54,122 nt of DNA. Source: Candidatus Levybacteria bacterium RIFCSPHIGHO2_01_FULL_41_15 (GTDB lineage Bacteria > Patescibacteriota > Microgenomatia > Levybacterales > UBA12049). Positions 1,698 through 24,943 of this stretch are shown piece by piece. Within the stretch, counting starts at the first letter, position 1; every line of letters begins with the position of its first letter. Below the pieces are notes generated by a model. That model did no database searches. It had not been told where the DNA came from and saw only the letters and a program-made list of their open reading frames with translations. A program made the position numbers and the translations under genes. The stretch spans positions 1-54,122 of the forward strand of contig MFNV01000009.1 in assembly GCA_001782165.1 (NCBI GenBank), read 5' to 3'.

Positions 1698-2879
1698 CTA
1701 CGCAATAATTTTGGAGATTACTCCTGCTCCGACTGTCTTTCCGCCTTCCCGAACAGCAAATCTTACTCCCTCTTCAAGTGCGACGGGAACAATAAGTTTT
1801 ACTGTCATTTTGGTTGAGTCTCCGGGCATTACCATTTCAACTCCCTTAGGAAGCGTAACTTCTGCAGTCACATCTGTTGTTCTTATATAAAACTGCGGTC
1901 TGTAACCTGTAAAGAATGGCGTGTGGCGTCCGCCTTCTTCTTTGGTAAGGATATAAACTTCTGCCTCAAATTCCTTGTGAGGCGTAATTGAGCCCGGTTT
2001 TACAATAACCTGCCCTCTTTCAACATCATCTTTTTCAATACCCCTTAGAAGTAGTCCTACATTGTCTCCTGCTTGACCTTCATCAAGTTGTTTTCGGAAC
2101 ATCTCAACTCCTGTAACAACCGTTGATTTGGTATCTCTCATCCCTACAATTTCAACAGATTCATTTACTTTTACAACTCCTCTTTCAATTCTTCCGGTTA
2201 CAACAGTTCCCCGACCCTTTATAGAGAAAACATCCTCAACAGGCATAAGGAAAGGCTTGTCAACATCTCTTTTGGGAGTTGGGATATCATTATCAACCGC
2301 ATCCATCAATGCTGAGATTTGTTTTTCTGCTTCCGCATCTCCCTCCAAAGCCTTAAGAGCAGACCCTCGAATAATTGTCACCTTGTCTCCGGGATATTTG
2401 TATTTTGTGAGAAGTTCCCGGACTTCCATTTCGACCAGATCCAGAAGCTCTGCGTCGGAAACCATATCGGTCTTGTTGAGGAAAACTACAATTGCCGGTA
2501 CTCCAACTTGATATGCGAGTAAAATATGTTCTCTTGTCTGGGGCATGGGGCCATCCGGCGCAGAAACTACAAGAATTGCACCATCCATTTGCGCAGCTCC
2601 TGTGATCATATTCTTAATGTAATCTGCGTGTCCCGGAGCATCAATGTGGGCATAATGTCTTTTGTCGGTCTCGTACTCAATGTGGGTAATATTAATGGTA
2701 ACCCCTCTTGCTTTTTCTTCGGGAGCATTGTCAATGTCTTCGTATTTCTTAACCTGCGCTTTGCCCTGTTTTGCCAAAACTGAAGTAATAGCAGCTGTTA
2801 ATGTGGTTTTACCATGATCGACATGGCCAATAGTACCAATATTTACATGCGGTTTTGTTCTTTGAAATTTTTCTGCCAT
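1698..2879 (-). CDS. tuf: elongation factor Tu
   Basis: [17 protein letters not shown] and NKTD motifs; full length. Confidence 0.99.
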
Positions 2880-2934
2880 ATTTTAAAAATTTTTACAAGA
2901 AAAGAATACACCTTAAAGTTTTAGGCTAGAAAGA

Positions 2935-2963
2935 AATATACAATATTTTTACGAGTGCGTCAA
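2935..2963 (-). promoter_or_regulatory. probable tuf promoter
   Basis: TTGACG-17 nt-TATATT with extended TG. Confidence 0.6.
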
Positions 2964-2981
2964 GGGGGAAAATAAAAAATA

Positions 2982-3515
2982 TTAATCTGGGATGTGTAGT
3001 TTGTCTCGAGGAATAGACGCTGCGCCTCGCATTCTTACAAGCACAAAAGCAAAATGTCCATCCGTTGATCCTCTATGCAAAGTGTTTGGGGGAACTGTTG
3101 TAAAATTATTGTTCTCGGTAAGCTCAACTTGTGAAGATCCATCCCCTCCTAAGTGAAGAAACATTTTTCCTCGCAACAGATGGTAATCTTCTTCAATTAC
3201 TACGCCTTCGTGAGGATGTTTATGCGAGGAGGTTTTTTTATTTGGGCCCATAAAATATATAAAAATCCAATCGTCACCAATCGTTCCTTCGTATATGTAC
3301 TCTGCTTCAGAATTAGAATTATCGTGTTGTCTTGATGGAAAAATAAGATCTAAAGTTTCCCCCTCTTTAAGAACGCCAATTGAGTAGAGTCTTTCATGTA
3401 AAACAAAGTGATAATTTGGGACGAACATCGAAAGCTCTTCCTGTGTTAGAAATTGAGGGGCTTGCTTTCCGTCTTCGGGATGAAAGCTAAATCCCCTTTC
3501 TGCCGGTGACAACAT
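2982..3515 (-). CDS. cupin-domain protein
   Basis: Cupin motifs TSSHKHPH...EEDYHLLRG and TVPPNTLHRG. Confidence 0.75.
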   Translation of the reverse strand: MLSPAERGFSFHPEDGKQAPQFLTQEELSMFVPNYHFVLHERLYSIGVLKEGETLDLIFPSRQHDNSNSEAEYIYEGTIGDDWIFIYFMGPNKKTSSHKHPHEGVVIEEDYHLLRGKMFLHLGGDGSSQVELTENNNFTTVPPNTLHRGSTDGHFAFVLVRMRGAASIPRDKLHIPD

Positions 3516-3545
3516 AAGTTACTTAAAAAGATATTATAATAAATT

Positions 3546-3578
3546 CTACTGTGCGGTGGCAACCCCTCTGGCAAAGGT
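3546..3578 (-). repeat. diverged duplicate of the fusA 3' end
   Basis: Encodes TFARGVATAQ* versus fus[10 protein letters not shown] (3894-3923); 23/30 nt identical with one codon gap. Confidence 0.75.
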
Positions 3579-3588
3579 ACAGGGAAAT

Positions 3589-3885
3589 TTATTTTTCTTC
3601 ATCTTTATTTTCATCGTCTTCTCCCAAATTAATTCTAATGGGATCAGGTAAAACAGCTGCTCGCGGCGTATCAGAATTCTTAAACCCCAAAGTAGCTGCC
3701 GTAGTTGCTGCCAAAATGTCATCTCCCGGACAAATCAAAATTCTTAAGCCCATTGCTACAACTGTAAATCCTACTCGTACAATAGAAGGAAAGAATCCTC
3801 TCTTAAGCAAGTATCTTGATTTACCACCGTTTTTCTCTGAGCCAACGGAGTCACTGACTGACATGCACTTCAGTTGTTCACGCAT
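3589..3885 (-). CDS. hypothetical protein lying between the two fusA 3'-end copies
   Basis: 98-aa ATG ORF starting 8 nt after the fusA stop; hydrophobic middle and acidic tail. Confidence 0.6.
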   Translation of the reverse strand: MREQLKCMSVSDSVGSEKNGGKSRYLLKRGFFPSIVRVGFTVVAMGLRILICPGDDILAATTAATLGFKNSDTPRAAVLPDPIRINLGEDDENKDEEK

Positions 3886-3893
3886 ATAACTTA

Positions 3894-6038
3894 TTACTGC
3901 GCGGATACCCTTCCGGTAAAGGTCGACTTGGCAAGCATTTGTTCTACAATATTTTTTGGAACTTCCTCATAATGAGATGGCTCCATGTAATATGATGCGC
4001 GTCCCTGAGACATACTACGCAAGGTTGTTGCATAACCAGATAATTCTGCCAAAGGAACCATTGCCAGAACAATAGTCGCCCTTGCTCTTTCCTCGGTTCC
4101 CAGAATCTGCGCTCTTTTTGCGGACAGATCTCCAATAACATCTCCCATAAATTCTGAGGGCGTTGTTACTTCAACTTTCATAATCGGCTCCAAAAGTGTA
4201 AGCCCTGCCTTTTTGGCTGCCGCCTGAAGCGCCTGGCTTGCGGCAATTTTAAAGGCTATATCTGAAGAATCAACTTCATGATAACTTCCGTCATAAACTG
4301 CAACTTTCATATCAACCATAGGATACCCTAATAAAACTCCGTTCTCCATGGATTCCCTAATACCTTTCTCTACAGATGTAATAAACTCTTTAGGGATTGC
4401 TCCACCTTTTATCGCATCTACAAATTCATAACCCTCTCCCCGAGGCTTTGGTTCAAGACGAAGAAAACAATGGCCGTATTGACCCCGTCCTCCAGATTGA
4501 CGAATATATTTTCCTTCAGCTTGAGTTTCTTTCGTTATTGTTTCTTTATAGGCAACTTGGGGCGCTCCAACATTTGCCAGAACTCCAAACTCTCTTTTCA
4601 TTCGGTCCACCATAATTTCAAGCTGAAGCTCTCCGATTCCCGAAATAATTGTTTGTCCTGTCTCATGATTTGTTTTTATCACAAACGTTGGATCTTCTTC
4701 GGAAAGTCTCTTAAGAGCAAAGCCAAGTTTTTCTTGATCGACTTTGGTCTTTGGCTCAATGGCAAGAGAGATAACAGGTTCCGGGAAAGAAATCTTTTCA
4801 AGAACAATTGGTTTTTTCTCATCACATAGAGTATCTCCCGTTGCCGTATCCTTAATACCGACAAGCGCTACTATTTCTCCTGCAAATGCCTCTTTTATCT
4901 CCTCTCTTGTATTTGCGTGCATAAGAAGAATTCGGCCGACTCTTTCCGTAATATTTTTTGTACTATTATATGTATAAGAACCCGATGTTATTTTTCCCGA
5001 GTAAACTCTAACGTAGGTGAGTTTCCCCACATGAGGATCGATCTGGATCTTAAAGGCAAGACCTGAAAAATGCTCTTCAGGCACAAGTTTTCTAACCTCA
5101 TCTCCATTGGTCTTGGGATTTATGCCATGAACCTCCTTAAGATCAAGAGGGGAAGGAAGAAAGTCCACAACAGCATCAAGAAGGGGTTGAACCCCTTTGT
5201 TCCTAAGAGAGGATCCCGCATAAATTGGAACCAGTTTGTAGTCAATAACTGCCTGTCTTAATGCTCTTCTCAACTCATCCACTGAAGGCTCTTCCCCTCC
5301 CAGGTATTTTTCCAAAAGCTTATCATCTGTTTCTGCAATTTTTTCTATAAGCTTATGGCGGTACTGCTCGGCTTGCTTTTTGAGATCTTCCGGAATTTCA
5401 TCGGATATCTCGAATTTCGCGCCAAGTTGATCCGATCCCCAAATATAAGATTTTCTACTTAAAAGGTCAACTATCCCTTTAAATGTTTGTTCGACTCCGA
5501 TGGGCAAAACCATAATCGCAGGATTTGCACCAAGCCTGTCCTCTATACTTTTGACTGTTGCAAGAAAATCAGCGCCTAACTTGTCCATTTTGTTGATAAA
5601 ACAAATTCTCGGAACTTTATATTTATCCGCCTGTCTCCAAACAGTTTCTGACTGAGATTGAACTCCTTCCTCCGCATCAAGAACTGTTATACCGCCGTCA
5701 AGAACACGAAGAGATCTTTCGACTTCTGCTGTAAAATCAACATGGCCCGGTGTATCTATAATATTTATCCGATAAGGGTCCTCTCGCCCCGCGGAGCTTT
5801 GCGAAGTGTGGGTCCAATAAGTAGTTGTTGCGGCAGAAACAATAGTGATACCGCGCTCTTTCTCCTGCGCCATCCAATCCATTTGAGTAGTTCCCGCATC
5901 GATATCTCCGATTTTGTATGTTTTTCCAGTATAAAAGAGAATACGCTCGGTCGTGGTGGTTTTACCCGCGTCAATATGAGCAATAATTCCAATATTTCTA
6001 ATTTTCTCAAGTGGTACTTGTCTTTTTGTTTCAGCCAT
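3894..6038 (-). CDS. fusA: elongation factor G
   Basis: [17 protein letters not shown] and NKMD motifs. Start placed at ATG 6038 (MAETKRQ). Confidence 0.99.
5787..5812. repeat. REP-like hairpin inserted in frame in fusA
   Basis: ccccgcggagctttgcgaagtgtggg encodes part of the extra peptide [12 protein letters not shown] before [11 protein letters not shown]. Confidence 0.55.
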
Positions 6039-6047
6039 AACATAAAA

Positions 6048-6146
6048 AAATTCCAAATCTCAAGCACCAAATCCCAAATAATTTTCTAATTTTCAAAATT
6101 CGAATTTTGAATTTATTTAGAATTTAGGATTTTGGATTTAGAATTT
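6048..6146. repeat. heptamer-period inverted repeat element in the fusA 5' region
   Basis: aaattcc-aaatctc-aagcacc-aaatccc-aaataat ... gaattta-ggatttt-ggattta-gaattt. Confidence 0.8.
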
Positions 6147-6189: not shown

Positions 6190-6837
6190 TTAGCGAGGAC
6201 CGAAAATTGTAGCAAAGCGGTTGTCGGGAAGTTTTCTGGATTTTGATTTTCTGTGTGAAAAATAATCAGATGATTCGAAAGTGCAAATTCTTGGATTATA
6301 AATATTTTTCTTTAAAACTTTTAGCCTAGTTAATTCTTTTTCAACTTTTTCCCAAAGATCGATTTCATAATGACATGGTCCAATTGATGGACCAATATTA
6401 ACAACGAGATTTTTGGGATTAATATTAAACTTTTTCTTTAAAGCTTCAATTGTACTCTTGACAATCTTTTTAAGATTGTGTCTTGACACATGAATAAGTC
6501 CAATGGTTTTAGTCTTGGGATCATAAACTGCAATAGGTAAACAGTCTGCTGTTAAAATACTCAAATAAACCTCTTCTCTATTTGAAACTGCCGCATCTGC
6601 TTTTATAACAGTCTTTGTATCTTTTGCACCTCTTCCTAAATCTTTTATTGTTACTGAATAAACTTTATCTTTATGCTGAAGATATAAAACTACAAAATTG
6701 TCTAAATTTAATCCAAATTTTTCTGCAATTTTTTTTCTATTTTTTAATGCTTCTTTTTCTCCCTTAAAGAAAGACATATTCCCATCACCTACTTTTGTCG
6801 TTAGTAAAACTAATGCTGAAAAATCCTCGATTTTCAT
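6190..6837 (-). CDS. pgeF: PgeF/YfiH laccase-domain purine nucleoside phosphorylase family protein
   Basis: TADCLPI, GPSIGPCHYE, ICTFES and FSHR motifs. Confidence 0.9.
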   Translation of the reverse strand: MKIEDFSALVLLTTKVGDGNMSFFKGEKEALKNRKKIAEKFGLNLDNFVVLYLQHKDKVYSVTIKDLGRGAKDTKTVIKADAAVSNREEVYLSILTADCLPIAVYDPKTKTIGLIHVSRHNLKKIVKSTIEALKKKFNINPKNLVVNIGPSIGPCHYEIDLWEKVEKELTRLKVLKKNIYNPRICTFESSDYFSHRKSKSRKLPDNRFATIFGPR

Positions 6838-6877: not shown

Positions 6878-7330
6878 ATGAAATTAAAGAAATTGATTAA
6901 GGATTATCTTGAAGAGGCAAAGTTGATGCAACTCTCAACTTGCGTTGATAATCAGCCGTGGGTCTGTCATGTTTGGTTTGCTGCTGATGAAAATTTAAAT
7001 ATTTACTGGTTTTCCTCAACTACAAGGCGGCATTCAAGAGAAGTAATGAAAAATCCAAAAGTTTCTGCTGCAATCGTTCTCCCTCACACTCCGGAAGATA
7101 TTCCGAGAGGACTACAGCTTGAGGGAGATGCGCAGCTTCTTACCGATGAGAAAGATATTCAAAAAGCAAGATCTGTTTATGAAGGACGAATATTTTCAAA
7201 AAAAGTGGTTAATGATTTAATAAAGTCCAAAGACTCACCTCATAAGTTTTATAAAATTAAACCAAGAGCATTTGTACTTTTCGATCTGGTAAACTTCCCG
7301 GAAAATCCCCGACAAGAATTAGAATTCTAA
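6878..7330 (+). CDS. pyridoxamine 5'-phosphate oxidase-like split-barrel protein (YhbP-like)
   Basis: MQLSTCVDNQPWVCHVWF...SSTTRRHS...NPKVS...GLQLEG. Start ATG 6878 follows TATAAT. Confidence 0.85.
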   Translation: MKLKKLIKDYLEEAKLMQLSTCVDNQPWVCHVWFAADENLNIYWFSSTTRRHSREVMKNPKVSAAIVLPHTPEDIPRGLQLEGDAQLLTDEKDIQKARSVYEGRIFSKKVVNDLIKSKDSPHKFYKIKPRAFVLFDLVNFPENPRQELEF

Positions 7331-7331
7331 A

Positions 7332-7361
7332 TTACCACCTGAAGTGGGCGAAGGCGCGGTT
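7332..7361 (-). repeat. diverged duplicate of the rpsG 3' end
   Basis: Encodes NRAFAHFRW* versus rpsG NKAFAHFRW* (8033-8062); 23/30 nt identical. Confidence 0.9.
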
Positions 7362-7392
7362 GACTCTCCAAATTTTTCCTCATGCAAAACTA

Positions 7393-7421: not shown

Positions 7422-7449
7422 AAGTCTAATAATCTAAATCATTAGACTT
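7422..7449. repeat. 28-bp palindromic site, copy 1 (operator or dif-like site)
   Basis: AAGTCTAATAA-TCTAAA-TCATTAGACTT. Confidence 0.9.
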
Positions 7450-7456
7450 AATAAAT

Positions 7457-7897
7457 ATGTCTCAGGTTTCGAGAAGAACACTCTCAAAAAACGTGGAAAA
7501 GAAAATGTATTCTATCTTTTTTAATGCATTGGCTCGATTATCAAACCCTTCAGATATTCAAGATTTTATTCTGGATCTTTTAGGACCAGCTGAACAAACA
7601 ATGCTAGCAAAAAGACTTGCAATCGCTGTTCTTCTGGTAAAAGGTTATCAGTATGAAACCATTAAAGATATTCTTAAAGTTTCACAGGAAACTATTGCGA
7701 GAGTAAATATGATGCTCAATTTTAGAGGTAAGGGATACAATATTGCGATTAAAAGAGTGCTTCGAGAGGAAAAGTTAGAAGATTTATTTAAAGTAATCGG
7801 AGATTCAGCCGTTGGAATTCTTCTTGAATCATCTATAAAAAGGTCTCTTAGACGAGAAAGAAAAAGAACAAGGAAACCCAAAACTGCCTTGGGATAA
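7457..7897 (+). CDS. TrpR-like (YerC/YecD-related) helix-turn-helix protein
   Basis: DFILDLLGPAEQTMLAKRLAIAVLL...YETIKDILKVSQETIARV matches the Trp-repressor-like pattern. Confidence 0.88.
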   Translation: MSQVSRRTLSKNVEKKMYSIFFNALARLSNPSDIQDFILDLLGPAEQTMLAKRLAIAVLLVKGYQYETIKDILKVSQETIARVNMMLNFRGKGYNIAIKRVLREEKLEDLFKVIGDSAVGILLESSIKRSLRRERKRTRKPKTALG

Positions 7898-7900
7898 GTT

Positions 7901-7928
7901 TAGTCTAATAATCTAAATTATTAGACTT
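7901..7928. repeat. 28-bp palindromic site, copy 2 (direct repeat of 7422-7449)
   Basis: TAGTCTAATAA-TCTAAA-TTATTAGACTT; 26/28 identical to copy 1; 3 nt after the stop codon. Confidence 0.9.
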
Positions 7929-8032: not shown

Positions 8033-8506
8033 TTACCACCTGAAATGAGCGAAAGCTTTATTTGCTTCTGCCATTCTGTGGACAACGTCTCTTTTTTTAA
8101 TTGCTTCTCCTTTGTTTTCTAAGGCATCCAGAAATTCTGCTGCAAGTTTTTCAGAAAATGTATGATAGTCTTTGTTGGACCTTCTGCGTGCCGCCTGTAT
8201 AAGCCACCTTATTGCAAGCGATGTTCGTCTGTCCCCTCTTACTTCAACAGGTATCTGATAAGATGCTCCACCCACTCTTCTTGCCTTAACTTCCTGTCTA
8301 GGTTCAATATTTGAGAGCGCTTTTTCAAAAACCTCAAGAGCATCTTCCCCCTGTTTTGAGATGTTTTCCAAAGCATTATAAAAGACTTTCTGAGCAACGG
8401 TCTTTTTTCCATCGCGCATCAAGTTGTTTATGAACTTCGTTGCGAGTTTGCTTCTGTAAATCTTGTCCGGCTCAGCTTGTCTTTTCCCTGCTTTCTTATG
8501 TCTCAT
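8033..8506 (-). CDS. rpsG: 30S ribosomal protein S7
   Basis: GKKTVAQK, RRVGGASYQIPVEV and MAEANKAFAHFRW motifs. Start set at ATG 8506. Confidence 0.99.
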   Translation of the reverse strand: MRHKKAGKRQAEPDKIYRSKLATKFINNLMRDGKKTVAQKVFYNALENISKQGEDALEVFEKALSNIEPRQEVKARRVGGASYQIPVEVRGDRRTSLAIRWLIQAARRRSNKDYHTFSEKLAAEFLDALENKGEAIKKRDVVHRMAEANKAFAHFRW

Positions 8507-8509
8507 CAA

Positions 8510-8598: not shown

Positions 8599-9072
8599 TT
8601 ATCCTGCGGTTTCCGCTGGCGCCTCTGCCGTAGTCTGGGCTTCTGCGGTCGGTTTAGGCGCTGCCTCTCCTCGCTTTGTTCCGTACTTGCTTCTTGCCGT
8701 CTTCCTTCCTTCAACTCCTGCAAGATCAAACTTGCCTCTTACAATATGGTATTTAACACCCGGCAAATCTTTAACTCTTCCTCCCCGCACCAAAACAATT
8801 CCATGTTCTGAAAGCGCATGTCCAATTCCTTGAATATAAGCAGTTACTTCCATTTTGTTTGAAAGCTTAACTCTTGCAACCTTTCGAAGAGCAGAATTAG
8901 GCTTTCTAGGAGTCATTGTTTTAACAAGAGTCACTACCCCTCTTTTTTGAGGAGCTGTTATTGATTTGTAAACCTGGTCTTTGGAATTAAATATTCTTCG
9001 TAGTGCTGTTGACCTGGTTTTTTTAACTTTGCTCTTTCTTCCTTTTCTTGAAAGCTGTGATAAGGTAGGCAT
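8599..9072 (-). CDS. rpsL: 30S ribosomal protein S12 with C-terminal Ala/Glu-rich extension
   Basis: [10 protein letters not shown] and [12 protein letters not shown] motifs. Confidence 0.99.
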
Positions 9073-9088
9073 CGTTTTAAATTTTTTA

Positions 9089-9165
9089 ATTACTAATTTC
9101 TAATTGACCTAAAATTTAGAAATTAGATCAATTAGGTTAATCAGGTTAATTAGGTTAATTGAAGT
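9089..9165. repeat. hairpin plus 9-bp-period tandem repeat between rpoC and rpsL
   Basis: ctaatttctaa...ttagaaattag stem; aattagatc-aattaggtt-aatcaggtt-aattaggtt-aattgaagt. Confidence 0.7.
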
Positions 9166-9169
9166 AGTA

Positions 9170-12100
9170 TTATACATTATCTGCGGAAGGTTGTTCAACT
9201 CCAATTTTATCGGGGTCAACCCCCGTTTGAGGAGGAAAGGGTTCGAAAGATCCCATCTCAAAATCGGTGGAGACTGAATCTGGGGCAACAGGAATCAGTC
9301 TTCCAATAATAACGTTTTCCTTAAGACCCATAAGCCTATCCTCCTGTCCCTGTAAAACAGCCTCTGTAAGAACCTTAGTCGTTTCCTGGAATGATGCTGC
9401 AGAAAGCCAGGAATCCGAGAAAAGTGATGATTTAGTAATCCCAAGAAGAATTTGTCTCGCAGTTGCAGGCTCCCCTCCCTGAGAAAGTGTTTCTGCATTT
9501 ATCTCCTCAAACTTAACTTTTGTTATGAAATCTCCGGGAATAAGAGAAGTGTCTCCGACTGTTTCAATTACCACCTTATCTGACATTTTTCGCAATATTA
9601 CCTCAAAATGTTTATCGTTAATTTCAATACCTTGAAATTCGTAAACTCTCTGAGCTTCTGCGATTATGTACCTTTGAGCGTCAATAATTCCCCTTATTTT
9701 CAGAATGTCTTTTGGATCAAGGTATCCCTGGGCAAGCTGAGACCCTGAGGAGATTGCATCACCGTCTTCTACTGTCAGCTCAGATGCCAAAGGGATAAAA
9801 TATTCTCTCTCTTCAGGAGGTTTAGTTCTTGGATTTCGAACTTTAACAATATATCCGTCCTCTGTTTTTTCGATCTTTATCTTTCCTGCAATATCAGACA
9901 TGGGAGAAAGATTCTTGGGGGTTCTCATTTCAAAAAGCTCCTCAACTCGGGGTAACCCTTGGGTAACATCGGACATTACTACCCCCCCAAAATGTCTTAC
10001 TCTCATGGTTAGCTGAGTCCCGGGTTCTCCAATTGACTGCGCCGCGATAACCCCCACGGGAACCCCTATTTTTACTTTTCTCTTGGTTGAAAAATCCCAA
10101 CCATAACAGGAGGCACATACCCCATATTCTATCTTGCAGATAAGAGGAGACCTTAAGTATACCTCTTCGATGTCACCGGACGAAACAAGATGAGCTTTCT
10201 CCTCATTAAGCTCCCCGCCTTCTTTAACAATTACTTTTTTGTTTTTTTTAGAAACTATATTTGATGCTGCAATTCTTCCCAATATTCTGTCATAAAAGGT
10301 TGCTCTTCTATCAGGCTCCTCTTTTAATACTGCGATTCCGTCTTTTGTTCCGCAATCTTCGCCTCTTATGATAACATCATGAGCAACATCAACCAACCTT
10401 CGCGTAAGATAACCGGCATTTGCAGTCTTTAAAGCAGAATCTGTCAGACCTTTTCTTGAACCCCGCGCACTTGCTACATATTCAAAAATTGATAATCCTT
10501 CCCTGAAGTTCGATTTAATTGGTAACTCAACTATTTTCCCTAGTGGATCTAGGATTAGACCTCTTATTGCAGACAGCTGCTTAACTTGCTCTTTACCTGC
10601 CCTAGCGCCTTCTGAATCAATAATTACCTTGATAGGGTTTTCGGATCTTAAGGAAGCCCAGGTTTTATCCGCAAGTTCATCAGTGATTGCAAGCCATACA
10701 TCATTCTCAAGTCTTTTTCTTTCATCATTTGTAATAAGGCCCTGCTGGTATTCAATCTCAATTTCTTTAATTTTCCTTTCGGCGTCCTGGATGCTTTTAT
10801 CTTTTCCTTCCACCATTTGATTATCAAATACCGAAACTGAAACACCTGATATTGTTGCTCCATAGAATCCGAGAGTCTTTATATTGTCTATAAGTTTCTC
10901 AACTTCCTCCGGGGAATAATTTGCTATAGCATGTGTTACTATTTTTTTGATGCCCGATGCTTTTACGGGGTTGTTTATAAATTCTAAAGTTTTAGGAAGT
11001 TTTTCGTTAAACATTATTCTTCCCACCGTTGTTTCGGTAATTTTGCCATCTATTCTGACTTTTATGGGTTCTCTGAATTTTATTTTGAACAAAGAATGGG
11101 CAAGAATAGCCTCATCTGGTGATCCAAAAACAGACTGAGAATCATTCCTTAAGGTTTCATCAAGACTTGTAAGATAGAATATTCCAACCGCCATTTCTTT
11201 GTTTGGAAGAGTTATGGGACTTCCATCGGCGGGTTTTAAAAGATTGTGCCTTGGCATCATCAGATTCACTGCTTCTTCCTTGGCCATGTTGGACAAAGGT
11301 ATATGAACTGCCATTTGATCTCCGTCAAAATCAGCATTGTAACCGGCACACACGCATGGATGAAGGCTTATTGCTGATCCCTCTATAAGTACCGGGTAGA
11401 AAGCCTGAATTCCCAATTTATGTAAAGTTGGTGCGCGGTTTAAAAGAACTGGATGATTTTTGGTAATTTCCTCAAGAATATCAAATACCTCAGGGGGTCT
11501 TTTTTCAATAAACCTTTTTGCTGATTTTATATTTGGGGCATATCCTCTTACAATTACTTCGCGCAAAACAAAAGGCTTAAACATTTCAAGAGCCATCTCT
11601 TTAGGAAGGCCGCATTCAGAAAGATCAAGTTCTGGACCAACGACAATAACAGATCTTCCTGAATAATCCACTCTTTTACCTAGGAGGTTTTGCCTAAATC
11701 TTCCCTGTTTTCCCCTAAGCATGTCTGATAGTGATCTTAAAGGAGAGGCTACTACCTGTGTTGATCTTTGGGATACATCAATCAATGCATCGACTGACTC
11801 CTGAAGCATCCTTTTTTCGTTTCGTAAGATTATTTCAGGAGCTCCAAGAATTATAAGATGCTTTAATCTGTTATTTCTGTTAATAACACGTCTATACAAA
11901 TCATTAAGATCAGATGTCGCAAATCTTCCTCCTGCAAGCTGTACCATGGGGCGAAGATCAGGCGGGAGAACAGGCAGAACTGAAATAACCATAGAGGAAG
12001 GGGAAACACCCGCCTTTCTCATTGATTCAATAAGTCTTAATCTCTTGATAAGCTTAAGATATTTCTGTCCTTTTGATTTTTCTGCTTCTTTTCGAAGTTT

Positions 12101-19384: not shown

Positions 19385-20053
19385 TTATAAACCCGCCGCA
19401 TCAATAACATCATATGCCTCTTTTATTCTCCCATCTAGTAAATAGTGAAGAATTCTTGGTCTTAATTTATAATCAGCAAAGGGTAGTGCCTGCAAAATTC
19501 TAAGATATCTAATATCACTTGGCAGAAAACGACTTGCAAAGTCCTTGATTCTTAAAGTAAATTCATGGCAAAATTCTCTAAGTCTTTCTAGCGTTTCTCT
19601 TTCTTTCCCTATCAATGTTGTTCTAGCATCTTCTGAAATAAACTTTCTGTTTGGGGCATTCTCAACATTTTGTCCTAAAGAATCTGCTCTTTCCTTAAGT
19701 GTTTCTTGGATAAAAAAGGAGGAGATATAGACTAGTTGGGGTGAGTCCATATCCCAATTCATTCTTCTTGAAATGCCTGCTAACTCAAGACCAACCATAA
19801 AAACAAGTGCGTTCTGTCCTCTGTGCCGTTTGGGGTTACCAAATGTGTTTATGCTTAAAAAAGTTATATTATCAAGAGCAAAGTCCCACTCAAGATCTGG
19901 GGCGACCTCGCGTGCATTTAAAACGGTATCACCTGCAACTTTCTTCCTTATCTCAAAACTTTCTATCTTCGCGGTTTTAAAAAATTCGCTGGGAGTCTTA
20001 GGAGTTATGGGATAGTCATACAAACCACCCCTTCTCTCTCTTGCGTCAGTCAT
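19385..20053 (-). CDS. hypothetical protein (accessory)
   Basis: 222-aa ORF with its own promoter, TTGACA-17-TAAGAT at 20065-20093. Confidence 0.75.
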   Translation of the reverse strand: MTDARERRGGLYDYPITPKTPSEFFKTAKIESFEIRKKVAGDTVLNAREVAPDLEWDFALDNITFLSINTFGNPKRHRGQNALVFMVGLELAGISRRMNWDMDSPQLVYISSFFIQETLKERADSLGQNVENAPNRKFISEDARTTLIGKERETLERLREFCHEFTLRIKDFASRFLPSDIRYLRILQALPFADYKLRPRILHYLLDGRIKEAYDVIDAAGL

Positions 20054-20089
20054 AGCAAGAGTGGATCTTATAACTTTGTTACGATAATG

Positions 20090-20494
20090 TCAATTTTGGG
20101 GTTCTTTTGCTTTTTCGAAGTTAAGAGCTAAAGAGTTTATGCAGTATCTTTTCCGCGTTGCTGTTGGACCGTCATCAAACACATGTCCCAAATGTGCCCT
20201 GCAGGTTTTACATTTTACCTCAACTCTTTTCATTCCAAGACTCAAATCATTTTCAAAATCCACATTATCTCCAACCAGCCTGTCAAAAGAGGGCCAGCCT
20301 GTTCCCGAATCAAACTTGTTGTCAGAGTAAAAAAGAGAATTTCCGCAGACAACACAATCATACATTCCTTTGTCGTGGTTATCGGTATATTTTCCTGATC
20401 CAGGCGGCTCGGTTCCCTTTAAAAAACAAATGTTATATTGTTCGGGAGTTAATTTCTTCTTAAGTTCTTCAAGTTTTTCCTTATCCATTTTCAT
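20090..20494 (-). CDS. msrB: peptide-methionine (R)-S-oxide reductase
   Basis: GTEPP, KFDSGTGWPSF, HLGHVFDDGP and RYCINS motifs; two CxxC. Confidence 0.97.
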   Translation of the reverse strand: MKMDKEKLEELKKKLTPEQYNICFLKGTEPPGSGKYTDNHDKGMYDCVVCGNSLFYSDNKFDSGTGWPSFDRLVGDNVDFENDLSLGMKRVEVKCKTCRAHLGHVFDDGPTATRKRYCINSLALNFEKAKEPQN

Positions 20495-20739
20495 CCTAGT
20501 GTTTTTACTTCTACAACATCTTCAAGTGGTACAGCTGCTCCCTCGTGCGCCTCTTTAACCTCTTGGGCAGATTGCGCTTCTGTCTGACAATAGGCAAAAC
20601 CCTTCTCCATGCTAACAACCGCGCCCAAAGGCTTTAGTCCCTTTGCCACTGCCCCCTGTTTATACTTTTCGTAACCTTCCCGGACATCAGTTTCGCTCAT
20701 TCCGGGGACAAGTTTATGAATTCCCAAAAATACTGTCAT
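20491..20739 (-). CDS. DUF4242/SCO4226-like small protein
   Basis: GFAYCQTEAQSAQEVKEAHEGAAVPLEDVVEV pattern; SD AGGAGGTGA (20745-20753) before ATG 20739. Confidence 0.75.
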   Translation of the reverse strand: MTVFLGIHKLVPGMSETDVREGYEKYKQGAVAKGLKPLGAVVSMEKGFAYCQTEAQSAQEVKEAHEGAAVPLEDVVEVKTLG

Positions 20740-20744
20740 TCTTA

Positions 20745-21032
20745 TCACCTCCTTTTCACACTATTATTTTCTGTTCTAAGCTTATCCAATGTTTCTGCTC
20801 TCGCCGTTCCACGGATTCCTCTTTCTGCTATAAGCTGATCTTGCGGATCAAGTACTATTTCGTTACCCTTTGAATCTTTAACTACAAAAGGTCTTGGATC
20901 TTCTGGATCTTCGGTAGGATAAACTCTTACTCTTTTAAAATGGGGACCCTTTCCTTCCCCTTCGGTTTGGATTGACATTTGCATTAAGAATGGTTTTTCG
21001 GGTTTTGACTGCGGGGGTCTTTGTGCTTCCAT
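20745..21032 (-). CDS. hypothetical protein
   Basis: Start moved to ATG 21032 (MEAQRP), 7 nt after TAAAAT, which removes the overlap with the divergent gene. Confidence 0.6.
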   Translation of the reverse strand: MEAQRPPQSKPEKPFLMQMSIQTEGEGKGPHFKRVRVYPTEDPEDPRPFVVKDSKGNEIVLDPQDQLIAERGIRGTARAETLDKLRTENNSVKRR

Positions 21033-21090
21033 ATGCTCTATTTTACCAAAAACTTGATATCTTGTCTTTTTATATATAAAATTGCTTGTT

Positions 21091-22224
21091 ATGCAAAGTA
21101 AAGAAGCGCCGCAAATGGAATTTGATATTGGGAAAGGTAATTCATTTGCCATCATGACTCAGGCAGCAACTAGTCCCGAACAGGAACAAAGAGTACAGGG
21201 CTTAATTAGTTTTTCGGATATTGAAAGAATGATCTATAGACATATCGAAAAAGTCCCTCCAAGAAATACTTTTGATGTAAGCGCTGTTATTGGAGCAGGA
21301 ATCGACTGGTTTTTGGTCCCTGCAAATTTTATCTATAGATACCGCGATGATTATTGCTTTGATCCCGACAGGTTTTATACCGAATGGAATTTACAAACTG
21401 TATTTTCAAGATTTTATCCCACTGGTTTTGGTTTTGATGAATATCTAGAGCTTTTCAAAAACCATCGCAAAAGATTTATCCAAAGCGATCCTCTAAAACC
21501 CGCAAATTTTGCTCTTGAAAGAAGAAATATAAAAAGGGCAATGATCCCATTATGGGAGGAGATTGCAAAAAAGTTTAAGATTGATTCTCTTGAAGTTCAA
21601 GAAATTATGGAAAATGCAAAAGGAGTTGTTTTGCCATCTGGGAGAACCGCATCGGCCGAAACTGTCGGACAAATCGGGCAGAGAATCGTAAGAGAAAGAT
21701 TTGATGCTTTGGTTGATGATGATAAAGATTACACATATATAGCAAAGCCCCGTTGTCTTTTGTCTTTTGAGGTTGACGGAATTACTTTTCAGGTCCAAGT
21801 TGAGCCGGATTACATAAAACGCAAGAGAGAAAAAAGAAAATCGACTATAAAAAGACAAGTCGTTGCAAAACGGATAGTCGGTGATTTTAAAGATTCCGAC
21901 AGACATAATTTAACCGACTATACAACCGCATTTGGGAAAACAATGCTTGTCTACAATTTTCTTTTAAGACAAATTGGGCAGAGATTTGTAGAAAAAGTTA
22001 CATGGGTAAAACTTCCTAACGGGCAGAGACGAAGAGTTTTTATAATAAGAGACAGGGTTTCAAAACCCGTTCCTTCGGATAGAGTCGAGACGGCTTTGGA
22101 ATTTTTGCAGGAAGAGAGCGGGGATATTTTTACACTGATGCCAAGACTTTCGGAAAAAGAAGAAGCTATGGCAAGGAATTTATTAGAACAGGCTCTTCAA
22201 ATTTCAAGGCAGGTTAGGATTTAA
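21091..22224 (+). CDS. hypothetical protein with putative PD-(D/E)xK (RecB-like) nuclease motif
   Basis: Long ORF containing VEPDYI...RIVGDFKDS...MLVY. Confidence 0.65.
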   Translation: MQSKEAPQMEFDIGKGNSFAIMTQAATSPEQEQRVQGLISFSDIERMIYRHIEKVPPRNTFDVSAVIGAGIDWFLVPANFIYRYRDDYCFDPDRFYTEWNLQTVFSRFYPTGFGFDEYLELFKNHRKRFIQSDPLKPANFALERRNIKRAMIPLWEEIAKKFKIDSLEVQEIMENAKGVVLPSGRTASAETVGQIGQRIVRERFDALVDDDKDYTYIAKPRCLLSFEVDGITFQVQVEPDYIKRKREKRKSTIKRQVVAKRIVGDFKDSDRHNLTDYTTAFGKTMLVYNFLLRQIGQRFVEKVTWVKLPNGQRRRVFIIRDRVSKPVPSDRVETALEFLQEESGDIFTLMPRLSEKEEAMARNLLEQALQISRQVRI

Positions 22225-22565
22225 CGAAAGCTTGGGGTTGAAAGACTATTCAATGAATTGGACTCAGGTTTGCAAAGCCTAAATGCAACATGCTGAGTTT
22301 TCTCATCGGTGCCAGTACCTATCATCGTTTTAGCGGGGTTTGGATTTATAAATTTAATAACTTTTCGTCTTAAAAGACCATTCTCCCGTTGATTCCAGAT
22401 CGACTCGGATATATTTGTTTGAAAGTAGGTAACAATTTTACCTTCTTGAACCTGATGAACCAAGCTAATCGTATATCCTCTGGTATCCGGGATAGGAATC
22501 TCATCGGTTACTATCGTGCCTCCTATATCCTTAAGACCTCTTAAGCCTAGTTCTCCCAAAAACAT
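22221..22565 (-). CDS. hypothetical protein
   Basis: 114-aa ATG ORF with TATAAT upstream; convergent 4-nt overlap with the neighbour. Confidence 0.55.
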   Translation of the reverse strand: MFLGELGLRGLKDIGGTIVTDEIPIPDTRGYTISLVHQVQEGKIVTYFQTNISESIWNQRENGLLRRKVIKFINPNPAKTMIGTGTDEKTQHVAFRLCKPESNSLNSLSTPSFR

Positions 22566-22638
22566 ATGGTGATAAAGCCTATAGGTATATTATACACCGT
22601 TTGTCAAAAAATACCCAATAAATTCAAGAATTTAAGAA

Positions 22639-23028
22639 TTATGCTTGAGGCGAGGTGGTTTCGTAAATTTTGTCTCCTGTTTTTATTACAATAGGGCGGA
22701 TGAGGTTAACGCCTATCATTGCAAGTTTATATCCAAAACCTCCGATAAAAGTCATAAGGAGAAAATGGGCAGAGAGATTAAGCGCGCTATCCAAAACGCC
22801 GGGAGGAATTATGTTAAGACTCGGGAGAAGAGCGGATAAATTCGGCTGACCAGTTGAATTTAAAGAATTTAAATCAGTATTGGATGCTGTAGGATAAGTG
22901 CTTTTTGGGATACTAAAGTATGTGGGATGAATTATATTCGTAAATGCGAGAATTACCAGAACTACCGAAAATACCATTATAAAAACTCCAATGCTTAAAA
23001 AAATATATCCCGTGGTCTTTGTGTTCAT
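22639..23028 (-). CDS. two-TM membrane protein
   Basis: Two hydrophobic helices, C-terminal GVNLIRPI. ATG 23028 lies 6 nt after TATCAT. Confidence 0.8.
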   Translation of the reverse strand: MNTKTTGYIFLSIGVFIMVFSVVLVILAFTNIIHPTYFSIPKSTYPTASNTDLNSLNSTGQPNLSALLPSLNIIPPGVLDSALNLSAHFLLMTFIGGFGYKLAMIGVNLIRPIVIKTGDKIYETTSPQA

Positions 23029-23203
23029 AAAATCATGATAAACAACCCCCACGGCATTTGCAACAAAAATTGTCAATCATGCTTAAGAAACTATTTGATT
23101 TGTTATTCTAGTCTTCTCAAGAATTTGAGAATATCAGACTATTTTTCAGTTTTATCAGATATTGCAAGACTTGACAAAATTTTTAAGAATGGGCAGACTG
23201 AAA

Positions 23204-24325
23204 ATGATGATACTTTCAAAATATCCAATCATAATTACCAGTGCGATTATTTTTTTTATTGTCTTTATTTTCAATTTTGCGCCCTTTTCTTATGCAGGTT
23301 CTCCAACAATCTCCAAGATAATTACAACTCAGCTGCACAAAGAGGGCGATCAGGTTCATAAATATCAGCTTGAGGCAGTTGTCAAAAATCCATCCGGAGA
23401 AAGAATTGAAGCATTTTGGAAAGTAGATTGCGGTAGTTTAAATACAGACAGGGGGTTTAAGGTTGTTTTAAGTTATTCCGATGATTGTTCAGATGCTCAA
23501 GTTACGCTAACTGTGGTTAACAATAAGCTGTACGGACAGAAATTAACTCAATATGTTTTTCTCCCCGGAACTCTCCGCATAGTAAATATCAAACCAAAAA
23601 ACCAGGAACCAGAAACCCAAGCAGTTACTACTCCCAAAAATCCCCCACTTTCCCTTATCCCAGCTGTTTCACAGCAGAAAAATTTTGGACAATTTCCATT
23701 TGTGACAAATGGAGTTTTAACAATTGCCGGATTAGTTTTACTTGCTGTCATTTTGTATGCTTTATGGAAAAAGTATTTATCCGTAAAGCTTATATCAACA
23801 GACAGTAAAGAGAAAGAGCAATGCAAATTGGGTGAGACAAGAGACTGTAAATTGATCGGCATGAAGTATTCTATCTACAACAGGAGACCTCATGAAGACG
23901 AAGAACTGGATTTATTCCTTGAGTTTTCTGCAGACGCAACCGACATTGCCAATTGGCTTATCTCAACAAGAGGCACAACTCCAGCGGTAAAAATGCTTCC
24001 GACTTTTCTAAGACAGACGATAGAAATCCATAAAAATATTAACAAAATTGAAAAATTGCGCGACGGGGTGGATATTTGGGGAACCATACAATGGGAAGAA
24101 TGTGAAGAACAAGGTTTTTGGATTTTGGCAAGCAATTCATGGGTACTTAAAACTAAAGATATTAAAATTTCTCCCCCGCTTTACTCATATCAGATGAATA
24201 CTCGAGCATGGAATCCGGAATATATGACGAATCAAAAATTTATCTATAGTAAGTTAAAGGAAATTCTTTCCTATGTCCGCAAAAAAGCCTTAGAGGAATG
24301 CCCGGGAAAACAGAGGGAAATATAA
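23204..24325 (+). CDS. hypothetical exported or membrane-anchored protein
   Basis: Signal-like N-terminus, beta-rich domain, Pro-rich linker, TM helix, then a Cys-containing C-terminal domain. Start approximate. Confidence 0.75.
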   Translation: MMILSKYPIIITSAIIFFIVFIFNFAPFSYAGSPTISKIITTQLHKEGDQVHKYQLEAVVKNPSGERIEAFWKVDCGSLNTDRGFKVVLSYSDDCSDAQVTLTVVNNKLYGQKLTQYVFLPGTLRIVNIKPKNQEPETQAVTTPKNPPLSLIPAVSQQKNFGQFPFVTNGVLTIAGLVLLAVILYALWKKYLSVKLISTDSKEKEQCKLGETRDCKLIGMKYSIYNRRPHEDEELDLFLEFSADATDIANWLISTRGTTPAVKMLPTFLRQTIEIHKNINKIEKLRDGVDIWGTIQWEECEEQGFWILASNSWVLKTKDIKISPPLYSYQMNTRAWNPEYMTNQKFIYSKLKEILSYVRKKALEECPGKQREI

Positions 24326-24352
24326 AATTTCAAACACTTTGAAAATTCTCTA

Positions 24353-24877
24353 TTATTCGTTGGGTGAAATTCTTACATCCAGAAGTTCGATGTCAAAGAC
24401 TAGAGAGGTGTTTGGAAGAATGGCATTTGGTACTCCTGTTTCTCCATACGCAAGGTCAGGAGGAATTATCAAGCGTCTTTTTCCTCCAACTCGCATTCCC
24501 AAAATCCCCTGATCCCATCCGGCAATCACCTTTCCAACTCCTATTTGAACTTGCAACGGCTGTTTGCCCAAAGATGTGTCAAAAACTTTTCCATCGGTAA
24601 ACATTCCTGTATAGTTAACAGTAATCGCATTGCCCGATGCGGCGGGCGTTCCCGTACCAATCTGCGTATCAATAATAGTAAGTTTTGTTATTTGGAAAGG
24701 AGCCTGAGTAGGAGGGGTCGTAGGCAAAGTTGTGGGCAAAGGAGTGGGCTGCCCGTTTGGAATAGAAATTGGAGAAGTGTCAAAAGGATTTATGGGTTTT
24801 TTGGAATTTAAAGAAAGAAGAAAACCAAAAACCAATAAAATTATAAGTCCATATATGATGAGAAACTTATTGTTCAT
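24353..24877 (-). CDS. FKBP-type peptidyl-prolyl isomerase with N-terminal membrane anchor
   Basis: VNYTG, VFDTS, VIAGWDQG and IIPPDLAYG motifs. Confidence 0.96.
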   Translation of the reverse strand: MNNKFLIIYGLIILLVFGFLLSLNSKKPINPFDTSPISIPNGQPTPLPTTLPTTPPTQAPFQITKLTIIDTQIGTGTPAASGNAITVNYTGMFTDGKVFDTSLGKQPLQVQIGVGKVIAGWDQGILGMRVGGKRRLIIPPDLAYGETGVPNAILPNTSLVFDIELLDVRISPNE

Positions 24878-24943
24878 TTTTCTCCCTAATCTTATCAGAA
24901 ATTAAAACGAGATGGTATAATCAGAGAGTAATTTTAAATTTCA

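Follow-up and report, generated by a model that had tools for sequence, protein, structure and literature searches.

We identified, behind fusA in a 728-kb genome assigned to the Candidatus Levybacteria (G000, the genome under study), a displaced copy of the fusA 3' end that flanks a one-gene insert. Alignments with related genomes showed that this copy is the original end, pushed downstream by a 345-nt segment that recombined into fusA 33 nt before its stop codon. Positions below refer to the window, the 54,122-nt stretch of contig MFNV01000009.1 that was analysed; G008, G013 and similar labels denote other genomes, and L060 is a metagenome relative.

The fusA gene encodes a 720-aa EF-G and lies at 3894..6056 on the minus strand according to the ORF list, with EF-G identity of 71-89% in 39 of the 40 other genomes. 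Its live tail occupies 3894-3923 (minus strand) and is followed by a second stop codon at 3891-3893; the 3' end reads ACC TTT ACC GGA AGG GTA TCC GCG CAG TAA TAA, that is, TFTGRVSAQ and two stops. At 3546..3578 on the same strand, re-reading (ACC TTT GCC AGA GGG GTT GCC ACC GCA CAG TAG) confirmed the TFARGVATAQ-stop that the first-pass annotation had placed there. Alignment, shuffles and the tails of relatives mark this scar as the displaced resident fusA end, which is now non-coding. The annotation had also aligned the two ends at 23/30 nt with one codon gap. Our recount reproduced the 23/30 matches, one 3-nt gap and aligned stops, but the codon gap is an artefact because the scar was compared with G000's own live tail, which has a double stop (TAATAA where G075 has CAATAA). 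Against the ten-codon fusA tails of relatives, the scar needs no gap. A repeat search placed 3562-3578 against 3907-3923 in register, with 14/17 matches and a spacing of 345. The longest run identical in both tail copies is ACCTTT (6 nt), too short to establish an att core; decay of the unselected copy could explain this.

The inserted segment (3579..3923, minus strand) is absent from relatives, and its edges are ambiguous within the repeat. It comprises, in order, a replacement fusA tail, the double stop, a 5-nt gap, ORF98 and 10 nt past the ORF98 stop. As the annotation had noted, the 98-aa ORF98 (3589..3885, minus strand) is the sole supported ORF between the tail copies; two other-frame ORFs that overlap it (58 aa, minus strand; 112 aa, plus strand) are without support. 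Neither blastn nor tblastn found a second copy of the insert in the G000 genome, and an Rfam search of 2800-4100 returned one chance-level match only (E=0.89).

Relatives preserve the presumed earlier arrangement. That the gene is an addition agrees with the nearest genomes (G008, G013, G023, G045 and G046), none of which has the insert in the interval from fusA to the ORF177 homologue; in G008, G013 and G023 the fusA stop is followed by 42-48 nt and then the ORF177 homologue. Without gaps, the scar matches the real fusA tails of G008 and G046 at 25/33 and 23/33 nt, respectively, and G000's own live tail at 20/33. Past the scar, a 23-nt run, ACAGTAGAATTTATTATAATATC, is identical in G046, with the same spacer and TATAAT box, and a DNA search matched the G046 fusA end to the live tail and also to the scar region. 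Moreover, an insert-free metagenome relative, about 87% identical in fusA, was found in runs X1, X6 and X10, in a contig whose match to 3551 is separated from its match to 3907 by 10 other letters and which reads TFTGRVAAQQ-stop. The check for a TFARG-like allele in related EF-G ends yielded none. TGR is invariant in 30/30 EF-G ends, so that the odd residues of the scar, in which three invariant ones are altered, reflect decay and not an allele.

Chance resemblance was assessed by local alignment with the last 36 nt of fusA as the query, for which the observed scar score was 14.5. When the 378 nt as far as ORF177 were dinucleotide-shuffled, none of 2000 randomised sequences reached this score; for the 1014 nt as far as tuf, 3 of 2000 did. 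Among 3844 windows of 378 nt on both genome strands, only fusA itself and the scar reached 14.5. That the scar merely resembles fusA by chance, within AT-rich intergenic DNA, would draw on the raw scores, which are similar for many AT-rich gene tails (in the genome survey, 47 own-downstream pairs scored at least 14 vs 41 mismatched ones). However, the null is much lower for the GC-richer fusA tail, as seen in the shuffles, in a tail-specific control against 150 other downstream regions (z=5.4; 0/150 reach the scar score) and in the genome-wide comparison (728 kb), where nothing besides fusA itself matched its tail better than the scar. The stop codons of scar and tail also align, and the scar is syntenic with the real fusA tails and spacer of relatives. 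The shuffles, the 150-region control and the gapless alignment to relatives' tails thus refute the chance reading, to which we attach almost no probability.

ORF98 encodes a small protein with the motif LICPGDDILAAT. No family was matched: searches of Pfam, NCBIfam and PHROGs gave no match, including no toxin or immunity family, and the protein atlas gave no usable one. Homologues occur at 89-90% identity, at 78% in L060 and at 47% in G075. Distant members adjoin map/adk in G159 and G160; a scan of species-representative genomes with the ORF98 alignment recovered only two distant map/adk-linked homologues, and a metagenome scan yielded 2 relatives among 104 pattern matches. ORF98 follows fusA in three lineages that do not group as sisters in the EF-G tree (G075, L060 and G000), and it has two N-terminal and two C-terminal variants, of which all four combinations exist. 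These distributions indicate that ORF98 is exchanged between species.

The live tail appears to belong with this cargo. L060 has an identical 26-nt run made up of the last 18 nt of this tail, the gap and the start of ORF98. Between G000 and L060, 241/256 positions agree over 3908-3650, compared with 1641/2139 in fusA and 32/42 in the 42 nt just upstream; at third codon positions, 72/79 agree in ORF98 and 359/719 in fusA. At group-distinguishing sites, G000 agrees with the nearest genus at 3915, 3986, 4052 and 4113 and with the ORF98-bearing genomes at 3905, 3897 and 3891. All four informative sites in 3912-4200 are of resident type; these sites are few, and types are mixed further upstream. 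A second G000-L060 patch, 96% identical, lies at 6581-6780 and shows that short-patch exchange is common; hence the left edge of the ORF98 patch within the fusA tail may be a coincidence. In G075 and L060, ORF98 stands behind fusA with no detectable scar: scar searches found nothing in L060 or G160, and in G075 the sequence behind ORF98 matched that genome's fusA tail no better than background. At the A-rich end of its ORF98, G075 has a 17/24 repeat, which was judged to be at chance level.

Downstream of the scar, ORF177 (2982..3515, minus strand) is a conserved fusA neighbour in the clade, with homologues directly behind fusA in G008 (63%), G013 (46%) and G023 (28%). Its only family match is a weak cupin-like one in NCBIfam, far below the cut-off. 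The next gene is tuf (EF-Tu; 1698..2879, minus strand), assigned from the ORF list and comparison with relatives. A promoter-like site for ORF177 (3533..3562, minus strand) matches the consensus at 11/12 positions, the best in 2850-4000, with a -35 box TTGCCA (3562-3557) inside the scar, an 18-nt spacer and a -10 box TATAAT (3538-3533). Only 61 sites as good exist genome-wide, and 30 of these precede an ORF start by no more than 120 nt, an enrichment in front of genes. The corresponding position in G008 carries TTGAAA-18-TATAAT, and the equivalent -35 box of G046 (TTGCAG; 3/6 matches) is not flagged as promoter-like. None of the RNA runs contained this stretch. The scar has probably been kept because it supplies the -35 box of this predicted ORF177 promoter.

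The comparison with relatives thus shows the outcome: a segment carrying replacement last ten codons, ORF98 and 10 nt entered fusA 33 nt before the stop, and EF-G stayed intact because the insert brought its own copy of these codons. The old end was displaced downstream while still joined to its spacer and ORF177. The most likely route, we infer, is that a small element or circle with a tail copy of its own recombined with the chromosome by one crossover within the TFTGR codons, which would give the geometry of attL/attR at elements integrated into 3' ends of housekeeping genes. According to PMC3240628, the homologous segment is duplicated when a circular molecule integrates by a single crossover. 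A recombinase acting in trans or since lost, or RecA on 17-33 nt of homology, could have performed the crossover, and the present state would be an integrase-less remnant of the CIME kind. The old end would persist since its GTTGCC part and the TATAAT of the spacer form the ORF177 promoter. For this explanation in its entirety, that a tail crossover inserted 345 nt and the old end was kept as part of the ORF177 promoter, we see about an even chance of its being correct. No integrase was found in or beside the insert, the four PF00589 matches in G000 lying elsewhere, and in five relatives with large fusA-tuf inserts none of 10 integrase matches fell within the fusA-tuf spacer.

Several known systems resemble this arrangement. 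The ORF98 insert is flanked by direct repeats containing the 3' end of its target gene and sits directly behind a core gene, as do the attL/attR-bounded streptococcal ICEs/IMEs at rplL, rpsI, rpmG, lysS and guaA. PMC4701971 describes direct repeats of 12-54 bp at integrative elements that hold the gene's last codons, with the gene product kept. The empty site is likewise seen in relatives of G000, and G000 itself has integrase-bearing examples at ftsZ and pepP. Lacking integration genes, the fusA insert also fits the CIME definition, a remnant without integration genes, given in PMC5704250. Unlike ICEs/IMEs, it is only 345 nt long with one gene; it has no integrase close by, and the search of relatives turned up none specific for fusA. 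Its repeats are diverged (23/30, identical run 6 nt), the operon continues beyond fusA, and the host is a CPR bacterium. The C-terminal displacement in rhs, CDI and T6SS effector-immunity loci, where successive insertions leave orphaned 3' ends, similarly inserts a new 3' tip and a downstream gene while the old tip is orphaned downstream; homology-facilitated illegitimate recombination (HFIR) has been put forward as its route (PMC5361080). At fusA, however, the tip is ten housekeeping codons and the protein is unchanged (TFTGRVSAQ as in relatives); there is no toxin-immunity logic, and one displacement is present instead of an array. Integron cassettes are promoterless single-gene units of a few hundred bases that enter a fixed site and are transcribed from upstream, to which the fusA insert can be likened, but no IntI or attI is present there.

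Other routes to the same arrangement have to be weighed against the tail crossover. Homology-facilitated recombination of transformed DNA (HFIR), named as a candidate by the first-pass annotation, would involve linear DNA whose fusA 3' part pairs with the chromosome and whose other side joins illegitimately 33 nt before the old stop, a geometry that works provided that this joint lies before the resident stop codon. HFIR is known from naturally transformable bacteria (Acinetobacter, S. pneumoniae, P. stutzeri). It too adds foreign DNA beside a homologous anchor, and competence genes are present in G000: ComEC and DprA are encoded, and judging from these genes transformation is possible. The near-identical short patches shared with another species show that foreign DNA recombines at this locus, and the fusA site lacks an integrase. 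A second copy of the hisS 5' head, next to the pepP scar, hints that joints have been untidy elsewhere. However, the part of fusA immediately before the tail does not appear imported: these 42 nt match L060 at only 32/42, against 241/256 in the ORF98 patch, and in nearly all 300-nt windows, the last five included, G000 fusA resembles G008 more closely than G075. No donor-type anchor is visible in fusA, and a divergence of about 20% leaves little uninterrupted anchor homology. True HFIR also predicts insertion with deletion, whereas a duplicate that is kept speaks for a single crossover. In the E. coli assays of PMC3240628, it was single crossovers of circular molecules, and not HFIR, that produced duplications. 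We consider HFIR conceivable yet rather unlikely.

The insertion might instead be old, with both tails present in the ancestor of G000, G008, G075, G013, G045 and G046 and ORF98 lost from the insert-free genomes by tail-tail recombination. The clade is an unresolved polytomy with ORF98 in two of its branches, and the pepP scar predates the divergence of G000 and G008 and has persisted through it. The scar is also closer to the live tail of G008 (25/33) than to that of G000 (20/33 ungapped), as a chimeric post-deletion tail would be. At least three precise losses would nevertheless be required, the tail is ordinary in the closest relative without the insert (about 87% identical), and at the third-position divergence of fusA from L060 an unselected 33-mer of that age would be unrecognisable outside the promoter part; we hold this history to be decidedly improbable. 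Direct repeats flanking an insert could also be a target-site duplication, in which the resident 33 nt were copied to either side by a transposon- or casposon-like insertion. In the right half, however, the live copy is of the type travelling with ORF98 and the scar is of resident type, so the copies were probably not identical at birth. Only chance-level AT-rich pairs were found as terminal inverted repeats at the insert, no transposase ORF is present, and 33 nt is far longer than usual target-site duplications. This origin is very improbable. The single crossover within the fusA tail remains our preferred route.

Similar scars occur elsewhere in the genome. The second case claimed nearby, a displaced rpsG end with a one-gene insert, is indeed present: the scar (7332..7362, minus strand), reading NRAFAHFRW-stop, lies 1 nt from the stop of a convergent PNPOx-like gene. 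It matches the live tail of rpsG (ribosomal protein S7; 8033..8509, minus strand, from the ORF list and comparison with relatives) at 21/24 nt with stops aligned (z=5.7) and the real rpsG tail of G008 at 31/33 nt by hand count; in G075 and G045 the rpsG end adjoins the PNPOx-like gene. The cargo is a YerC/YecD-type TrpR-related gene (7457..7897, plus strand; Pfam Trp_repressor, TIGR02531), which was unmatched in the stretches of seven relatives searched, five of them spanning the rpsG junction. A genome-wide survey of tails against downstream regions added cases at pepP, ftsZ and glyA. At ftsZ, a full 365-aa tyrosine integrase gene and an HTH gene lie between the tail and its diverged duplicate, 5.9 kb away. 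When five relatives were searched at the DNA level for the empty ftsZ site, the only match was an 82-nt conserved stretch in G075, which ARAGORN did not recognise as a tRNA. At pepP, a tyrosine recombinase gene is followed by the scar and hisS, an arrangement common to G008; no promoter-like site was found there, so that retention as a promoter does not generalise. Candidates not counted as scars were C8:23564-24574, a GC-rich stretch recurring inside the next ORF; C10:45535-46128, which is AT-rich; and C6:1124-1459 (z=9.9) and C5:53892-55313, with a tandem repeat at the stop.

The first-pass annotation had generalised from the fusA and rpsG cases to a short-homology route that adds single genes behind core-gene stop codons. 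Since the pepP and ftsZ cases enclose tyrosine integrase genes, this route need not be integrase-free, and at the fusA site it was not general: among 30 genomes, only G000 has a fusA-tail scar within 1.5 kb. A broader model is that single-gene cassettes mimicking the last ten or so codons of core genes circulate among co-occurring CPR species and integrate by crossing over within that tail without an integrase of their own; either a recombinase acting in trans or RecA, working on 17-33 nt, would serve. Where the core-gene end overlaps the next promoter, duplication would then split the roles, the upstream copy coding and the downstream copy being freed to become a better -35 box (TTGCAG in G046 to TTGCCA in the scar). 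We regard this model as speculative and unlikely to hold in full.

The kind of event is familiar from integrative elements, to which the fusA scar adds an example and no new principle; a new principle would follow only if an integrase-free cassette route were shown. A narrow literature search found no report on integrase-linked insertion in ribosomal protein operons of the candidate phyla radiation. The locus illustrates that a very small, compact genome can gain a gene inside the str operon with both neighbours undamaged, the incoming DNA supplying a new EF-G end while the old one remains with the next gene's predicted promoter. Such scars may offer a means to read the direction and order of insertions in the str row. 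Along this row (rpsL-rpsG-fusA-tuf-rpsJ), the junction cargo differs in almost every genus of this bacterial family.

Behind fusA (3894-6056, minus strand) lie a 98-codon gene, ORF98 (3589-3885, minus strand), a short segment at 3546-3578 (minus strand) that reads TFARGVATAQ and a stop, and ORF177 (2982-3515, minus strand), the conserved neighbour of fusA in this clade. The segment, hereafter the scar, is a displaced gene end, real and well bounded. As the first-pass annotation stated, it agrees with the live fusA end (TFTGRVSAQ and two stops) at 23/30 nt with one codon gap; in register, 14/17 nt agree at a spacing of 345. The chance match rate, which that annotation proposed to estimate by shuffling, proved low: the final 36 nt of fusA, aligned locally, scored 14.5, a value reached by none of 2000 shuffles of the 378-nt spacer and by 3/2000 shuffles of the 1014 nt between fusA and tuf. 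Among 3844 windows on both genome strands, only fusA itself and the scar attained this score, and the tail-specific z was 5.4 against 150 other downstream regions. Contigs identical to the window cover ORF177, the scar and the ORF98 end in one metagenome run (X1), and the scar and the ORF98 end in another from a separate study (X7); since identical contigs thus exist in public groundwater and soil runs, the assembly is supported. A 15-nt AT-rich inverted repeat (12/15 pairs, 3538-3552 / 3579-3593) encloses the middle 26 nt of the scar and is probably due to chance, because six such pairs occur in 481 nt.

Comparison with related genomes showed that 3546-3578 was correctly read as a displaced fusA end, as the scar and the following 30-nt spacer align without gaps to the relatives' genuine fusA end and spacer. 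In the nearest genomes (G008, G013 and G023), the fusA stop is followed by 42-48 nt and then the ORF177 homologue, without ORF98. Counted on the alignment, the scar is identical at 25/33 nt to G008, 23/33 to G046 and 20/33 to the live tail of its own genome (G000). A 23-nt identical run shared with G046 extends past the stop codon into the spacer with its TATAAT box, and when 194 family genomes were searched at the DNA level, the G046 fusA end matched the live tail as well as the scar region. The codon gap is present against the live tail but gone against the relatives, which have ten codons after the Ser, like the scar. The live fusA carries a double stop, TAATAA, where the related genome G075 reads CAATAA. 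A TFARG-like allele, for which the first-pass annotation proposed to compare EF-G C-termini, occurs in none of the related EF-G ends: TGR is invariant in 30/30 of them, and the scar has ARG. Because TGR is invariant and the odd residues of the scar are absent from relatives, these residues reflect the decay of a copy that has ceased to code. Moreover, in a contig from an insert-free relative (runs X1, X6 and X10), 3551 and 3907 are linked through ten differing letters; the contig reads TFTGRVAAQQ and a stop, then the same spacer as the window, and 42 of the 320 nt in its fusA part differ.

ORF98 belongs to a real protein family. No family was found for it in Pfam, NCBIfam or PHROGs, nor a usable atlas match, but two proteins 89-90% identical to it occur in a 5.8-billion-protein collection and a 78% relative is encoded on a 19-kb metagenome contig, L060. 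Matches by tblastn were obtained in 8 of the 194 family genomes, G000 included; distant members in G159 and G160 adjoin map and adk, with the common motif LICPGDDILAAT. At the six loci examined from these matches, ORF98 lies behind fusA in G075 only, where it begins 9 nt past the fusA stop, is frameshifted and is accompanied by no scar. On L060, ORF98 also follows fusA, with a 26-nt junction identical to that of G000; no scar lies behind it, and the ORF177-like gene is reduced to a 3' remnant ahead of tuf. An EF-G tree of 37 rows placed G000, G008, (G075, G013) and (G045, G046) in a supported (98/95), unresolved clade, with G075 weakly paired with G013, which is without ORF98.

Sequence comparison indicates that ORF98 is exchanged between species. 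Window 3908-3650, which runs from the final 15 nt of fusA through the second stop and the gap to codon 79 of ORF98, is identical between G000 and L060 at 241/256 positions, compared with 1641/2139 for fusA. Third codon positions agree at 72/79 in the ORF98 stretch versus 359/719 in fusA, and the 42 nt of fusA just upstream of the stretch agree at 32/42. In addition, ORF98 has two variants of its N-terminal part and two of its C-terminal part, and each of the four possible pairings is represented (by G000, L060 and the homologues P0001 and P0002). A second 96%-identity patch to L060, with flanks of ~75% identity, lies at 6581-6780 in the 5' part of an accessory Cu-oxidase_4 gene (6190-6837). 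This second patch shows that short-patch exchange between the two lineages is general; it may therefore be by coincidence that the ORF98 patch has its left edge inside the fusA tail.

The insertion occurred 33 nt before the fusA stop and brought a replacement tail. As for the probable route, the right half of the tail goes with ORF98 in the live copy and is of resident type in the scar, an arrangement that corresponds to attL and attR after one crossover in the left 17 nt of the tail (the TFTGR codons). Such a layout resembles that of tyrosine integrases that, as described in PMC4701971, target the 3' ends of conserved housekeeping genes, where direct repeats of 12-54 bp keep the gene product, and that of CIMEs, which PMC5704250 defines as remnants retaining attL and attR after loss of the integration genes. 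Against an integrase at fusA, none is encoded in the insert or in the fusA-tuf spacers of five relatives, and unbroken identity between the tail copies spans only 6 nt. Homology-facilitated illegitimate recombination (HFIR) of transformed DNA, the candidate named in the first-pass annotation, is possible because ComEC and DprA are encoded in the genome. However, HFIR predicts a donor-type anchor in fusA, and none was seen, with relatives standing in for the donor and synonymous sites near saturation. According to PMC3240628, assays built to detect HFIR mostly yielded duplications of homologous segments, which arose when a circular molecule recombined by a single crossover. In a different setting, rhs and T6SS loci have orphaned 3' ends that show the same pattern as the fusA scar (PMC5361080). 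The scar belongs to a known kind of event.

The scar probably survives as the -35 part of a putative ORF177 promoter, as judged by match to consensus. Between 2850 and 4000, the site most like a promoter is a minus-strand TTGCCA, 18 nt, TATAAT (11/12 matches), with the -35 box inside the scar and the -10 box in the spacer, 17 nt ahead of the ORF177 start. Only 61 sites this good occur genome-wide (both strands), and for 30 of them a long ORF starts no more than 120 nt downstream (~6% expected). G008 has TTGAAA-18-TATAAT at the matching place, entirely in its longer spacer; in G046, whose spacer is short like that of G000, the equivalent -35, TTGCAG, overlaps the last fusA codons with 3/6 matches and was not flagged by the scan. 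An insertion right after the fusA stop would split this promoter, whereas a tail-duplicating insertion would spare both genes. The stretch is contained in no RNA run, and no promoter-like site was found at the pepP scar described below.

For each of 752 long ORFs, we matched the final 36 nt against the 1 kb downstream of the same ORF, using 150 other downstream regions as control. Six ORFs exceeded z = 5. Tail duplicates with aligned stops were those of fusA, rpsG and pepP, which confirms a second case, at rpsG; of the remaining three ORFs, one is part of a VR/TR pair and another has a stop codon with a tandem repeat. The VR/TR pair belongs to a diversity-generating retroelement outside the window (G000:C9:74915-75730 and 332-444 nt downstream), and the two copies of its 112-nt repeat differ almost exclusively at positions that are A in the downstream one. 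A 126-nt duplicate at glyA reached z = 4.3, and a survey of 1-6 kb downstream added ftsZ. Besides fusA, tail duplicates are thus present at rpsG, pepP, glyA and ftsZ, but a fusA-tail scar within 1.5 kb was found in G000 alone of 30 genomes (z = 4.0; next highest, 2.2).

At rpsG, the scar (7332-7362) and the stop of a convergent, accessory PNPOx-like gene (plus strand, ending at 7330) are 1 nt apart, the place that the real rpsG end occupies in G075 and G045, and by our own count the scar matches 31/33 nt of the real rpsG tail of G008. Its cargo is an accessory YerC/YecD-type regulator gene (7457-7897, plus strand). Two copies of a 26-nt near-palindrome, AGTCTAATnATTTAGATTATTAGACT, flank this gene (7423-7448 and 7902-7927), of five genome-wide at <=5 mismatches; they may be operators of the regulator or ends of the inserted unit. 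At pepP (G000:C2:9738-10829), the order is pepP, a lone tyrosine recombinase gene by Pfam (8862-9638, frameshifted in G000), a diverged duplicate of the 12 final pepP codons (8798-8834) and hisS. G008 has the orthologous arrangement, with a 296-aa recombinase whose reading frame stops inside the orthologous scar. Directly after the pepP scar (~8746-8789), a short frame beginning MGNIKTQALKGFRD resembles the hisS N-terminus, MTKVEPRTLKGFRD (hisS ATG near 8701), and looks like a displaced 5' head of hisS. The ftsZ duplicates are 5.9 kb apart with an 11-nt identical core. Behind ftsZ (G000:C5:25477-26595), the 5.9-kb island (~19520-25476) carries a full-length integrase adjoining the ftsZ stop, an HTH_3 gene and ORFs without assigned function. 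At its far end, the duplicate forms an ATG-started 14-codon frame, MFDLDIPAFLRQRN and a stop, behind TTGACC-17-TATATT, and could therefore encode a predicted free FtsZ C-terminal peptide. At glyA (G000:C8:14002, +100 to +226), the last ~126 nt of the C-terminal extension recur diverged, with a stop, 100 nt downstream, and the intervening stretch is GC-rich without an ORF. On C2, the last codons of the gene at 2655-3338 recur as a 25-nt perfect copy 1634-1659 nt downstream, behind a methyltransferase-like and a nucleotidyltransferase-like ORF; this copy could be a further tail scar or the end of a paralogue.

The genome comprises 728 kb in 10 contigs, and the window is one end of contig C9. The str row there contains, all on the minus strand, rpsL (8599-9072), rpsG (8033-8509), fusA, tuf (1698-2879) and rpsJ (300-608). 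Among relatives, the fusA-tuf distance ranges from ~670 to 4830 nt (seven measured) and the tuf-rpsJ distance from ~20 to 2290 nt, and the cargo at the rpsG-fusA, fusA-tuf and tuf-rpsJ junctions differs in almost every genus (loci L031-L037, L047, L060 and L062-L066). With these variable genes and distances, the str row is a hot spot for insertions. The rpsG junctions of G008, G013, G023 and G046 carry differing cargo and no scars. Two small ORFs lie between tuf and rpsJ. Ahead of a 95-aa ORF (1110-1397), an in-frame ATG at 1449-1451 is followed by 14 codons and then TAG at 1404-1406; either a longer gene is broken here, or the frame is a short one upstream of the ORF.
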